IMG/VR virus record: IMGVR_UViG_3300042402_005702
Span: 1 to 56,841 of that record
Length of the DNA stretch: 56,841 nt
Reading direction: 5' to 3' (one strand)
Source of the DNA: a virus
Taxonomy: Duplodnaviria; Caudoviricetes
The notes under the pieces were generated by a model that saw nothing but the letters and a program-made list of their open reading frames with translations, was not told where the DNA came from and did no database searches. The position numbers were made by a program, and so were the translations under genes. Position 1 is the stretch's first letter, and each line of letters opens with the position of its first letter. This document shows, in pieces, positions 53,773 to 56,841 of the stretch.

Positions 53773-56760
53773 ATGCCGTACTCGATTGCACGCGGTAAAG
53801 GTTGCTCGCCGTCTAAGCCTTGGGCTGTAATCAAAGACACTGACGGTTCGGTTGTCGCCTGCCACACATCCAAGGACAGCGCGCTTGCACAAATCCGTGC
53901 GCTGTACGCCGCCGAACCCGCACTTGCCAAAGCACGCGAACGCATCACAAAGCACCTGCCGGGGCAACATTCCCAAAAGACTCACGCCACAGGCGGTGGC
54001 GGCACACCAGACGGCGGAGCGCCAAAGAAACGCAACAAGAAAGACATCGCCGCTGACGACCAGCGCGCTTTGGAGTTGTACGAGTCAGGTAAAACGTGGG
54101 ATCAGGTTGCCGAGGAGATGGGGTTCGCAAACGGCGGTGTGGCGCGACGCGCAGGCAAACGCCATGAGGAACGACGTAAAGCCGGTGATGGAACCGACAA
54201 GAAACCCGACGAGACGCCCGACAAGATTGACAAACCCGAACCGCCGAAGCCCACGCCGCCACCAGTCGACGTGACAAATCCGCGTCCGATGACGGACAAA
54301 GACCCAAGTCAACAGTTGGTGCCGACGGAGAATTTCCAAGAAGCAGTCGAGACTGGACGCCCGTTCAAGCCGTTTACTGAGGAAGGCAAATCGCAAAAGG
54401 TGCGCGACGCGGAACAGAAGGTGCTGGACGCATCCGACGAATACGACCGTGTCTACAAAGAATACGAACCTGTAATCGCGGCGCGGGACAAGAAAATCAA
54501 AGAAGACTACGACACATATTCGGCGGAGTTGAAACGTCGTCAGGAAGCCAATCCCCGCAAACCAGAAGAGTCAGCGTACGACCACGAGAAGCGCGTCAAG
54601 AAACAGATGGAAGCGGACGGCATTAAGGAACCACAAAGTCCTGTCATCGCCGACTCGATGGGTCAACTAATCAAAGAAGGCGTCATTCCTGAAAGCCACC
54701 GAGAACGCCTTAACGCCGCTGGAACGTCAATCCAGAATGCCTACGCGGAACGTCGACGGGCAATTGAAATCGACACCATTGAAAACATTGTCGGAGCGAA
54801 AGTGCAAAGCCTGCCTGTGATGGAGATTGACTTTGATGCGCCACGCGATCCGGTGACTGGTGAACGCCCAATGAAACAACGCCTCGGCGACTACGGCGAG
54901 CAAAAGGGTAAACCTATTTTCAGAGAAGTTGTTGTTGTTGAGGCAAACGGTAACCGCTACGAAGTCCCTGTTCAAGACATCCTGCGAGACGAGGGCGATT
55001 GGCGTGTTCCGCAGTCTGATGTCATTCAAGAAACAGTAAGTTTTCGTTCACGCCTCGCCGAACAACAGCAGAACCGTTACGAAGCAAAACGGGCTGACCC
55101 AACTTTTGAGGCACGACAAGCAGAACAACTTCAAAGGCAACAAGCCATCGTTGACTCCCCACATACACGCATTGTTGTCCACGCACCCGTTTCTGCGGTC
55201 GGTGGAATTGTCACGAGTGGACGCATCAAATCTCAACATGAAACAGGACGCACTAAAGGGTTTAAGGGCGAAGACACACGCGCAGGATTTGAAGCCGCCA
55301 CTATGGGCGTTGTTTCTGCAACTGCCCCAACCAAAGAACAACGAACCAAAGCACCGATTTACGGTGCGTTGCATTTGGGTGGAGTTCGCGACAGTCAAGC
55401 CGTCGGCGCGGAGCAGTACGGCGAGGTTGGTTTCGTATTAAAACGCGAGGTGCATCAACGCGCCACGTTTACCGAAGGCGACTCGCTTGGTTTGTGTTTT
55501 GAACCATCACCGTTGTCGGGGCGTCAAACCCGACCAAATGGTCACGCCAACTCAGGTGGAGTTGACGTTCGTCGTTGGGGTGACGCCGACTCTCCTGAGC
55601 GGTTTGCAGGAGACATCGCACCAGCCCCGCGACGCACCAAGGGCTACCACGAAGCACAAGTTCTCGGCGGTGTTTCACTTGCCGACATTGAGTATGTCAC
55701 CGTTCCGAAAGGGACAAAGTTTCCTGAAGCGTCCCGAAAGAAACTCGCCAAAGCAGGCATTCCAATCGTTGAGTACGACATCGCCGACGTTGCACCACCC
55801 ATCATCGGAACAGAGGATCGCTACCCAATGAAGGGTAAGCCGTACCAAGTACCGAAGTTCGCCGACGGTGATTGGGGCAACATTCCCGAACCAACCACGA
55901 AAACGCTCGGTGTCATCGCAGACATTTTCAAGTTCCGACGCCGCCACAACACTCGCACACCGTTACGAAGCCTGTCGATTTCCACAAACATCACCCCAAC
56001 GGTGACGATGAAACACGCCAAACACGACCAAAAGACACACGGCAGGAGCGGCGGGCGCGCGTCAACACTTGACGCAGACAATCTTTACAGCGCACCGTTT
56101 CGCGCAAGAATCACCGACGACGGGTTTGAAGTCGATGAAGAAGGAATGCTCGCGTTTCTTGAGGGGCAAACATCCGCCCACGTCGACGTCACCAAACAGG
56201 AAGGTAAAGCGGTCATCGCTTACCAATCCGAACTGTACTACGAACAAATCAACGGTGGACTCCGCGAACAAGTAATCATGGGAGAAACAGACCTCCTTGA
56301 CCCAGAAATACGAACCATCATTTCTGACGTTGACAAAGCAATCGACAAGAGCGGTTTCACCGAAGACGTGGTTGTCTTTAGAGGACTTGACGACAACGAA
56401 GGAATGATTTCAGGAATGACCATAGGAGACTCATTTGTTGACCCCGCCTATCAGTCAACGAGCCTTAACCCGCTAGTCGCTTTCTCGTTCGCGACTGGAC
56501 TGCAAAGCGGAACAGGGAACGCGAACCCTGTCGTGATGCGCATCAAAGTACCAGCGAAAAGTCCCGCCCTCGCCGCCGACGTTGCCAGCACTCGCGCACT
56601 CGGAACGAAAGTCCAAACATATCGAGACGACACAGAGATTTTGGGTTTCAGTTTCGGCGCAGAGGTCATTTTGCCTCGCAGTACGATGTACGAAGTGACA
56701 GGAAGCCAAACGATAGATGGCGTGCAACTACTCGACGTGACGGTGGTGCGCAATGATTAA
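53773..56760 (+). CDS. Head-associated polyprotein: N-domain + His tag + ANGG-HTH + DUF3626-like domain + second His tag + VIP2-like ADP-ribosyltransferase
   Basis: MPY..C..WAVIK..CH..A.AQ..AL; KSQHETG..PIYGAL..YG..LK..TFT.GDS..EAQV.GG..L.DI; Y..IN..LR..VFRG..YQSTS..EVILPR. Confidence 0.8.
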   Translation: MPYSIARGKGCSPSKPWAVIKDTDGSVVACHTSKDSALAQIRALYAAEPALAKARERITKHLPGQHSQKTHATGGGGTPDGGAPKKRNKKDIAADDQRALELYESGKTWDQVAEEMGFANGGVARRAGKRHEERRKAGDGTDKKPDETPDKIDKPEPPKPTPPPVDVTNPRPMTDKDPSQQLVPTENFQEAVETGRPFKPFTEEGKSQKVRDAEQKVLDASDEYDRVYKEYEPVIAARDKKIKEDYDTYSAELKRRQEANPRKPEESAYDHEKRVKKQMEADGIKEPQSPVIADSMGQLIKEGVIPESHRERLNAAGTSIQNAYAERRRAIEIDTIENIVGAKVQSLPVMEIDFDAPRDPVTGERPMKQRLGDYGEQKGKPIFREVVVVEANGNRYEVPVQDILRDEGDWRVPQSDVIQETVSFRSRLAEQQQNRYEAKRADPTFEARQAEQLQRQQAIVDSPHTRIVVHAPVSAVGGIVTSGRIKSQHETGRTKGFKGEDTRAGFEAATMGVVSATAPTKEQRTKAPIYGALHLGGVRDSQAVGAEQYGEVGFVLKREVHQRATFTEGDSLGLCFEPSPLSGRQTRPNGHANSGGVDVRRWGDADSPERFAGDIAPAPRRTKGYHEAQVLGGVSLADIEYVTVPKGTKFPEASRKKLAKAGIPIVEYDIADVAPPIIGTEDRYPMKGKPYQVPKFADGDWGNIPEPTTKTLGVIADIFKFRRRHNTRTPLRSLSISTNITPTVTMKHAKHDQKTHGRSGGRASTLDADNLYSAPFRARITDDGFEVDEEGMLAFLEGQTSAHVDVTKQEGKAVIAYQSELYYEQINGGLREQVIMGETDLLDPEIRTIISDVDKAIDKSGFTEDVVVFRGLDDNEGMISGMTIGDSFVDPAYQSTSLNPLVAFSFATGLQSGTGNANPVVMRIKVPAKSPALAADVASTRALGTKVQTYRDDTEILGFSFGAEVILPRSTMYEVTGSQTIDGVQLLDVTVVRND

Positions 56761-56841
56761 CGTGAGCAGATTTGGCGGTAAAAGTTCAGACTACAAACGG
56801 GTCGACAGGAACGCAGAAACGGTCGCTGTCAAGCATCTCGC
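56753..56841 (+). CDS. 5' part of the gene continuing at base 1 (MINVSRFGG..AVKHL)
   Basis: ATG overlaps the end of the upstream gene; frame is open to the window end. Confidence 0.6.
   Translation, partial: MINVSRFGGKSSDYKRVDRNAETVAVKHL

Follow-up and report, generated by a model that had tools for sequence, protein, structure and literature searches.

Why should one short, His-rich peptide stand at the head of several otherwise different protein modules in a phage head-gene cluster, and what might it do there? The question is raised by the virus record IMGVR_UViG_3300042402_005702 (Duplodnaviria; Caudoviricetes), a single IMG/VR record of 56,841 bp, classed as linear and with a CheckV completeness of 96%, the whole of which is called the window in the following. 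A preliminary description of the window, made from its letters, had pointed to five copies of the peptide (here called the tag) in four genes, each copy being followed by a Gly-rich linker and a putative effector module (here called the payload), and had proposed that the tag addresses these modules to the capsid. As detailed below, this peptide is conserved as an amino acid sequence and, at a constant place among the head genes, forms the N-terminal border of effector modules that are interchangeable; the tag is probably a cut-and-load label for proteins that are carried inside the capsid.

Five Tags in the Window

The copies in the window follow the pattern [hydrophobic]-x-K-H-x(2-4)-H-(x)-[DS]-Q-x-x-H-[GA]; there are five of them in four genes, and one runs across the ends of the record:

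53944-53988 (motif 53953-53985), + strand: tag 1, ITK-HLPGQHSQKTH-A, with Ser at the usual position of Asp
56005-56043 (motif 56014-56040), + strand: tag 2, TMK-HAKHDQKTH-G, from the six-frame scan
56825-56841 plus 1-27, + strand: tag 3, AVK-HL(A)GKHDQSTHG, split by the record ends
3227-3268 (motif 3236-3265), + strand: tag 4, VLK-HPGHADQSVH-G, from the six-frame scan
3987-4028 (motif 3996-4025), + strand: tag 5, VQK-HPGHADQSVH-G, from the six-frame scan

The number of copies and genes given in the preliminary description was thus confirmed by the six-frame scan and the reconstruction of the junction, and a Gly-rich stretch was indeed seen behind all five. With a strict motif, K-H-x(1-5)-H-x(0-1)-[DSENT]-Q-x-x-H, the scan returned four matches plus the junction copy, with Lys in front of each, and none in any other real open reading frame (ORF) of the window in six frames. 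The four matches compare with a mean of 0.007 in 300 mononucleotide shuffles and of 0.003 in 300 residue shuffles of the ORFs of at least 100 amino acids (aa), the maximum being one in either case. Tags 4 and 5 are identical as peptides and differ at synonymous sites, which argues for selection on the peptide and not for a DNA repeat; chance, low complexity, or a DNA repeat as the origin of the tag are ruled out by the shuffles together with these synonymous differences.

The head module of the window leaves the record at its 3′ end and resumes at its 5′ end, and tag 3 lies at this very point. The junction gene starts at 56762 and reads AVK-HL plus two bases at 56825-56841; GKHDQSTHG follows at 1-27, with the frame off by one base. 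A close relative, L004 (its protease is 85% identical), reads AAGCATCTCGC-C-GGCAAGCAC across the junction, that is, identical DNA apart from a single additional base where the ends of the window meet, and therefore exactly one base is missing in the window. The incomplete codon is GCN, which means Ala for any base, and tag 3 becomes K-HLAGKHDQSTHG; the earlier reading HL(A)GKHDQSTHG at the junction was correct by this codon and by the comparison with L004, where the homologous tag is K-HLAGKHDQRTH (K-HLQGKHDQRTH in L005). The record reads as a circularly permuted complete genome lacking one junction base, and its junction gene looks frameshifted because that base is absent from a record classed as linear.

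Distribution of the Tag

IMG/VR was scanned with two degenerate DNA patterns, one per tag form, which gave 31 and at least 120 stretches, or 144 loci from 127 contigs; the duplicate loci L091 and L092, equal to L004 and L005, were removed before counting. A relaxed expression that does not require the Lys found 558 tags, 497 of them unique, in the ORFs of at least 100 aa of these loci; since the patterns used to find the loci require parts of the motif, the prevalence is a lower bound and the frequencies of the tag forms are biased toward the seeds. Of 1.84 billion representative proteins, 1,769 were matched at E≤1e-3 by a profile made from 150 diverse copies; for 487 of them the match reached E≤1e-10, and for 41 it reached E≤1e-30. 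Seven of the 150 best matches do not contain the strict regular expression. The tag is portable, as had been supposed: the payloads behind it in 127 other viral contigs form no fewer than 98 unrelated clusters, and the 1,769 protein clusters come in addition.

Single proteins carry up to 20, 10, nine, and eight copies. One of 7,059 aa (P0001) has 20 tag stretches; another of 2,201 aa (P0003) consists of tag-ART units in tandem, with nine tags and nine ADP-ribosyltransferase (ART) domains; and a third combines eight tags with six ARTs and one GNAT. Five complete genomes of about 62 kb have 19, 18, 5, 10, and 14 pattern matches, all on one strand per genome (in the first, one site was counted twice at the record ends, which leaves 18), while the reversed control pattern gave no match in the same five. 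All but two of these copies are located in one block of 4-16 kb adjoining the protease gene; the two lone tags far from the main cluster are at G002:C1:41109-41144 and G005:C1:10989-11018.

Among 185,579 prokaryote genomes scanned for a stricter pattern, K-H-x(2-4)-HDQxxHGxWA, seven stretches matched, four of which have in-frame tags in ORFs of at least 80 aa; three (L228, L231, and L232) are clear and come from actinobacterial metagenome-assembled genomes, the fourth (L229) is doubtful, and the other three stretches look like chance. On the L232 contig (2218-2295, minus strand), two tandem tags stand six residues apart (KHAQHDQSSHGRKGSAKHGTHDQSSHGNWA). A tblastn search of 50,697 GenBank phage records with four tag segments of 28-41 aa, which is only moderately sensitive, gave nothing or chance-level matches (29-46% identity at E about 1-10).

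Anatomy of the Motif

In its general form the motif comprises about 20 residues, [V/I/L]-x-K-H-x(2 or 4)-H-D-Q-x-x-H-G, and -[N/S]-W-A-x-G is its usual continuation. The Lys at -1 is found in 554 of the 558 copies, and in 238 of the 242 whose form was not that of a seed pattern. Position -3 is V, I, L, or M in 364 of the 497 unique tags, and Pro is common at -4; this hydrophobic-x-Lys flank is the same in N-terminal and internal copies. The first and second His are separated by two residues in 210 copies and by four in 277; the Asp is present in 455 of 497 and replaced by Asn in 34, the Ser of tag 1 being a rare variant (four of 497). The search expression itself demands the Gln and the last His; Gly follows the latter in 424 of 497, and W-A stands at +3/+4 in about 57%, the tags of the window belonging to the minority in which a Gly-rich sequence takes its place. 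Conservation reaches at least 16 residues past the Lys.

The tag always precedes a module of about 200-250 aa and never follows one. From the first Met to the first tag the median distance is 42 aa, from tag to tag 204 aa, and from the last tag to the end of the ORF 244 aa (minimum 38 aa); in many of the 150 best library proteins no more than 5-15 residues lie ahead of the Lys, for example MLIIK-H... or the recurrent MKVIKFAPGLIPVLK-H.... In an AlphaFold2 model of tag 2 with its ART, residues 1-31 (flank, tag, and linker) have a predicted local distance difference test score (pLDDT) below 50, and the ART core one above 90; since the model shows tag and linker as disordered ahead of a confident fold, the tag is predicted to be a linear peptide that is tethered flexibly to the payload and lies outside its fold. 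No Pfam, PHROG, or NCBIfam model aligned over the tag region of the window or of the multi-tag proteins, and a curated family covering the tag was thus found in none of the three collections.

Payloads and Their Turnover

Two payload modules of the window, both in a polyprotein of 995 aa, resemble known families in some detail:

55174-55764, + strand: DUF3626-like module, residues 468-664 (Pfam DUF3626, E 7.3e-6; phrog_8314, E 1.2e-8)
56188-56712, + strand: C3/VIP2-like ART module (F-R-G at 56377, S-T-S at 56455, G-A-E at 56656)

By sequence and fold, the last module of this polyprotein is a probable ADP-ribosyltransferase domain: it matches PF03496 with E 6.5e-11 and 42.4 bits (cut-off 23.4), and its Foldseek top matches, obtained with an AlphaFold2 model of mean pLDDT 82.4, are C3 exoenzymes (E about 1e-12) and VIP2 (8.6e-11). 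F-R-G and S-T-S are present; where the family consensus is ExExxLPR the window has GAEVILPR (aligned by eye), so that the first Glu of ExE is replaced and the second kept. SopF has ART activity. DUF3626 is linked to the SopF family (PMC6682159), and the DUF3626-like module of the window, with 25.6 bits against a gathering cut-off of 27, is a related region that falls just short of membership. The C-terminal module of the junction protein contains HEATH, an HExxH motif, at 1309-1323; its sole family match is a weak one to DUF6782, a putative metallopeptidase family (E 0.082). Similar short helix-turn-helix (HTH)-like modules lie directly behind tag 1 (54016-54174) and tag 3 (25-186), in two different proteins, with support from phrog_645 (E about 1e-7) and a weak match to HTH_7 (E 0.15). 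Of the names proposed earlier for the payloads, the VIP2-like ART and the HExxH motif stand, the former with the PF03496 match and a C3/VIP2-like fold, while the DUF3626-like assignment lies just below the cut-off and the HTH is weak; the two payloads between protease and scaffold (behind tags 4 and 5), described as being of unknown kind, matched nothing in the family search.

At large, 457 unique complete payload segments (those above 700 aa had been dropped before counting) fall into 98 BLAST clusters. A Pfam census of 149 segments drawn at random from the 457 found ART in 22, zeta toxin in six, AAA_33 and DUF3626 in five each, and topoisomerase I, SprT-like, and DUF5824 in two each; DnaB/primase, XkdF, 2′-5′ RNA ligase, PI3/PI4 kinase, GNAT, DRAT, and an ATLF-like peptidase occurred once, and about two thirds of the sampled payloads have no match to the Pfam families listed. 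The PHROGs matching payloads are Alt-like and RNA-polymerase ARTs as well as families whose annotation is that of minor head or head morphogenesis proteins. An independent set of library proteins (from 150, those above 1,000 aa were dropped and 66 of the remaining 80 used) gives the same picture, with ART-PolyVal (PF18760) in one of 66. HExxH modules of the SprT-like, ATLF, or TIGR04338 kind number two and one among the 149, three and two among the 66, with P0064 in addition. Unexpectedly for head cargo, the tagged payloads include a replication protein of the DnaB/primase type (phrog_239, E 5e-184); topoisomerase IB was met twice.

The payloads turn over between related phages: in close relatives of the window the proteases are 85-92% identical, the sets of modules differ, and the modules that are shared are 44-71% identical. 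The tag-5 payload of the window has no counterpart in seven close relatives.

The Head-Gene Slot

The genes around the tags of the window, listed as they follow each other across the junction, are:

51030-52487, + strand: Mu-type portal protein (Pfam Portal_Mu, E 2.8e-36; phrog_113, E 2.5e-88)
52487-53470, + strand: MuF-like head morphogenesis protein, 327 aa (Pfam Phage_Mu_F, E 3.3e-10, residues 191-302)
53515-53769, + strand: untagged ORF of 84 aa, no Pfam or PHROG match
53773-56760, + strand: two-tag polyprotein of 995 aa, composed of a 60-aa leader, tag 1, HTH-like module, DUF3626-like module, tag 2, and ART
56762-56841, + strand: 5′ part of the junction gene, with a 24-aa leader and the start of tag 3 (AVK-HL, 56825-56841)
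1-1632, + strand: 3′ part of the junction gene, with the rest of tag 3 (1-27), HTH-like module (25-186), and C-terminal HExxH module
1629-1940, + strand: untagged ORF of 103 aa, no family match
1981-3063, + strand: prohead protease, with an N-terminal phrog_2859 domain (2299-2631) and an XkdF-type S78_2 domain (2662-3018; PF14550, E 2.7e-15)
3056-3805, + strand: protein of 249 aa, with a 60-aa leader, tag 4, Gly-rich linker, and a payload without family
3744-4529 (likely ATG start 3816), + strand: protein with tag 5 and a payload without family
4585-5340, + strand: scaffold-like protein, the downstream limit of the cargo slot (phrog_13547, E 1.4e-54; position kept in synteny)
5356-5751, + strand: small head protein between scaffold and capsid genes (by synteny; "head fiber protein" at this place in Arthrobacter phage Ottawa)
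5782-6738, + strand: major capsid protein (54% identity by tblastn to the annotated major capsid protein of Arthrobacter phage Ottawa, E 7e-116)

This map agrees with the placement of four carrier genes between MuF (52487-53470) and scaffold (4585-5340) in the preliminary description, and the MuF protein itself lacks a toxin extension, as was noted there, since it ends 25 residues past its MuF domain. The predicted protease is of the XkdF type by family criteria (56.9 bits against a PF14550 cut-off of 24), and Asp, His, and Ser are invariant in 36 homologs. The capsid protein has its nearest relatives in Arthrobacter and Microbacterium phages; together with the tags on actinobacterial contigs, this makes actinobacteria the likely hosts.

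The same arrangement is found in the other loci, which supports the supposed concentration of the tag in head-gene clusters. The tagged ORFs are all on one strand in each of 143 loci. Among untagged same-strand ORFs (149 of 489 were searched with Pfam, ORFs above 900 aa or overlapped by longer ones having been dropped), the top families are MuF (18), Portal_Mu (13), and XkdF (9); with locally iterated profiles, MuF was matched in 81 loci, portal in 57, XkdF in 40, scaffold in 26, and the capsid protein in 17, where a missing neighbor is not evidence of absence because the loci are no longer than about 15 kb. The gene order is portal, MuF, one to eight tagged genes, XkdF (with its phrog_2859 domain, where present), in some cases further tagged genes, scaffold, small head protein, and capsid protein; tagged ORFs lie downstream of the portal gene in 147 of 149 pairs, and they precede the scaffold gene in 80 of 80 and the capsid gene in 45 of 45. 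Tags are also joined in one polyprotein with MuF or with the head protease: 19 of the 81 MuF ORFs contain tag and payload as well, and in seven ORFs an XkdF domain is followed by a tag. In L210 and L228 the Lys of the tag stands a few residues past the last strand of the protease (...GYSVGGTGVR.EIEK-HG.HDQ).

Some features of the slot deserve separate mention. The listed TTG start of the tag-5 gene, 3744, makes it overlap the preceding gene by 62 bases; ATG 3816 would give it a leader of 60 aa, the same length as those ahead of tags 1 and 4. Two small untagged ORFs without family lie inside the slot, one (84 aa) after MuF and one (103 aa) after the HExxH protein; these products of 53515-53769 and 1629-1940 are conceivably partners of the chaperone or immunity type. 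The phrog_2859 domain, which precedes the XkdF domain in the protease of the window (residues 107-217; 2299-2631), is present in at least 599 IMG/VR stretches and is elsewhere itself a tagged payload (in 21 of 31 ORFs; 14 of the 149 payloads). The N-terminus of the scaffold-like protein (4585-4690), ...ETSGVDHPAHLxEGW[LV]VMK, is nearly invariant in 25 of 26 homologs; its V-M-K end has the hydrophobic-x-Lys pattern of the tag flank and may be another protease site. The same N-terminus also resembles the first strands of XkdF domains.

How the Tag Might Work

The reading we prefer is that the tag is a prohead-protease site cut after its Lys, whose His-rich part would be kept on the modules as a label for capsid loading or for ejection; judged from the sequences and by analogy to phages that process their head proteins, its chances are about even. 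The modules would be made as single proteins or as polyproteins and would enter the procapsid together with MuF and scaffold; the head protease, of the XkdF type in the window, would cut behind the invariant Lys; the His-rich stretch would then form the new N-terminus on a flexible linker and act as a common handle, possibly a metal-binding one, that holds the module in the head or guides its exit with the DNA; and the payload enzymes (ART, SopF-like, zincin, and others) would have their effect in the host early in infection. Cleavage after the Lys by the head protease is, we think, the most likely event, because the layout of the flank resembles that in T4, tags separate modules as cleavage sites do, and protease-tag fusions occur. 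With its near-invariant Lys at -1 and a hydrophobic residue at -3, the flank is compatible with a protease site, and is no proof of one. As what is conserved lies behind this Lys and exceeds by far the length that a protease would require, a further function is probable, namely that of a handle retained by every module, and metal binding by the three His and one Asp of the tag is plausible. In a more general form, the tag would be a cargo-loading peptide: any protein with it at the N-terminus would be packaged in the procapsid, released by the head protease, and delivered along with the DNA, in interchangeable arsenals of up to about 18 effectors; this extension is tentative, and we regard it as possible, if rather doubtful.

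A number of observations weigh against a cleaved and retained label. The protease partner is not uniform, as PF14550 was found in just one of five larger tag-bearing genomes; in the larger genomes without XkdF the tags are in MuF-containing polyproteins, one such genome has an HK97-type S78 protease, and one larger complete genome matched neither PF14550 nor S78. Strict linkage to XkdF as a universal rule is ruled out by these genomes, so that of the association between tag and XkdF-type proteases raised in the preliminary description, the part that stands is that for the complete genomes of about 62 kb, where PF14550 is present in five of five. (The S77 protease, PF03420, was not found in four genomes; the control was likewise without a match, and the search is therefore uninformative.) Leaders of 5-8 residues are short for a propeptide, and the conserved part lies on the P′ side, is longer than a protease site needs, and leaves room for the Lys simply to belong to a binding motif. 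SprT-like zincin modules inside the tag cluster of three of the five complete genomes could be the processing enzymes instead. An AlphaFold2 model of the natural XkdF-tag fusion in L210 has a confident protease core and a tag with pLDDT below 50, and is uninformative on docking; a complex prediction of the XkdF domain with the tag, scoring 0.00 in two runs made with no controls, speaks neither for nor against. The head modules of Arthrobacter phages Ottawa and Laroye, relatives by their capsid protein, have no tag, nor do those of phages Tierra and DSL-LC01, which are matched by the DUF3626-like region; because the GenBank phages gave chance-level matches at best and Ottawa and Laroye lack it in the head module, there is no characterized tagged phage to lean on.

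One rival is not a weak one, even though we give it an outside chance only: the tag would be the recognition site of embedded zincin-like metallopeptidases, cut before packaging or after ejection and independently of the prohead protease. Such peptidases have been proposed to process polyvalent proteins (PMC5512222), and candidates are at hand in the HExxH module of the window (1309-1323) and in the SprT-like, ATLF, and TIGR04338 modules among the payloads, SprT-like ones being part of the tag cluster in the three complete genomes just mentioned; PF14550 is also absent from four of the five larger tag-bearing genomes. Against this, XkdF is found in all five complete genomes of about 62 kb and is itself fused directly to tags; furthermore, G004 has no SprT-like match, G003 has a weak one outside the cluster, and DUF6782 is in none of the five, an absence that is weak evidence because only two zincin models were searched.

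It is similarly unlikely that the tag is a removable capsid-targeting propeptide, in which leader and tag together would direct the protein to the procapsid core and the tag would be cut off within the Gly-rich linker, leaving the mature cargo untagged. There is a precedent in the targeting sequence of T4, an N-terminal stretch of about 10 residues that can be transferred to foreign proteins and that the head protease removes (PMC9026906), and the position of the tag, N-terminal to every payload with a flexible linker behind it, would suit such a role. What such a propeptide would lack is a cleavage site in the right place: the sequence past H-G-x-W-A is variable and has no conserved cleavage-like residue, the sole invariant flanking residue being the Lys in front of the tag; moreover, internal tags would be left as C-terminal tails on the preceding module.

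The slim chance that the tag is not cut at all concerns a metal-binding connector (for Zn, Ni, or another metal) that would join one module to another, to DNA, or to the inside of the capsid, or would keep the modules in an unfolded state that can pass the tail, with the Lys as part of the binding motif. The invariant His, His, Asp (455 of 497), Gln, and His with their two fixed spacings (x2 in 210, x4 in 277), the conservation over at least 16 residues past the Lys, leaders as short as 5 aa, which make a propeptide look unnecessary, and the two tandem tags six residues apart in L232 would all be in keeping with a connector, which, however, accounts neither for the hydrophobic-x-Lys flank that is shared also by separate genes nor for the protease fused directly to tags. 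Lastly, HK97-fold capsids are known to cross-link, and Lys and Gln are both invariant in the tag; that the two form isopeptide bonds (of the transglutaminase or HK97 type) to the capsid or to partners in a covalent docking is nevertheless hardly credible, as no transglutaminase-like domain turned up in the payload and neighbor censuses and fixation would hinder ejection of the effectors.

Comparison with Known Systems

The tag itself is what is new: it is in no Pfam, PHROG, or NCBIfam model, and its literal strings are in no paper of the literature searched. Nothing on the specificity of XkdF was found in the literature on its cleavage and nothing pertinent on MuF together with capsid targeting or with ejected ARTs, and the literature on capsid targeting and cargo yielded work on T4, P1, giant phages, and N4 only, supplements not being covered.

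By content and neighborhood, the system belongs with the polyvalent proteins of phages and with MuF-linked toxins. Polyvalent proteins (Iyer et al. 2017, PMC5512222) are likewise phage proteins with multiple effectors, linked to MuF and portal, and share the set of domains (ART including ART-PolyVal, zeta-toxin kinases, zincins, topoisomerase IB, GNAT, primase/helicase); it is assumed that they accompany the DNA and undergo proteolytic processing. The 995-aa protein, with its DUF3626-like and PF03496 domains, has two effector domains in one polypeptide as these do, and the characteristic domains and the association with MuF and portal emerged from the payload and neighbor censuses. The difference is that here a conserved His-rich motif of about 20 residues stands before every module, including those in separate small genes, whereas processing is credited to zincin peptidases there; the word "linker" does not appear in the text of that paper, whose supplements, outside our scope, might show the motif in alignments. 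The MuF polymorphic toxins (Jamet et al. 2017, PMC5576092) similarly tie toxin domains to MuF, as do the fusions in 19 of 81 MuF ORFs of the tag loci. In the window, by contrast, the MuF protein is not fused to a C-terminal toxin, and the putative toxins are unlinked genes or polyproteins downstream of MuF, each headed by a tag (tagged genomes have up to 18); the text of PMC5576092 (supplements again aside) does not contain the words linker, cleavage, or histidine.

In the giant phages SPN3US and phiKZ (PMC10052503; PMC9026906), the prohead protease shortens many proteins of the head interior, cutting at a short motif; these sites end in Glu and have no long conserved tag, and the phages are unrelated. 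By analogy, the tag would work most like the capsid-targeting sequence (CTS) and protease gp21 of T4. T4 packages Alt, an ART, and its internal proteins by means of a 10-residue N-terminal targeting sequence (PMC9026906), and gp21 trims them at I/L-x-E (PMC12991175); in both systems a short, portable N-terminal peptide goes with unrelated proteins, ARTs among them, and the set of cargo varies among relatives, a feature of an arms race. The site of gp21 is laid out as hydrophobic-x-charged, like the flank of the tag, with Glu as the P1 residue in T4 where it would be Lys in the tag. Yet the sequences are unrelated, and the conserved part precedes the cut and is lost in T4 while it follows the putative cut in the tag; the flank in the window is [VIL]-x-K and the protease S78_2, not I/L-x-E and S77, the head module has MuF and XkdF in place of gp21, and tags also punctuate long polyproteins.

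We know of no phage injecting head proteins, other than T4, for which a portable capsid address has been defined. If the reading as a cut-and-load label is true, the tag would be such an address, defined by its sequence, for a large group of uncultured phages; it would flag hundreds of unknown protein families as candidate injected effectors of host takeover or anti-defense, and would provide a handle for effector discovery in viromes and possibly a tool for loading foreign proteins into capsids. The scale is unexpected, with up to 18 tagged modules per 62-kb genome and nine ART paralogs in one protein; the effector arsenals would then take up 10-16 kb, up to a quarter of a 62-kb genome, and consist mostly of enzymes of unknown function. 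Outside the phages, encapsulin cargo-loading peptides, which are short and portable, have a flexible linker, and are usually C-terminal, direct diverse enzymes into an HK97-fold shell. That system is non-viral and its peptide unrelated in sequence; if the more general form of our reading is true, the tag would be a natural, programmable means of protein delivery akin to the encapsulin peptides and the T4 CTS, and one in far wider use.

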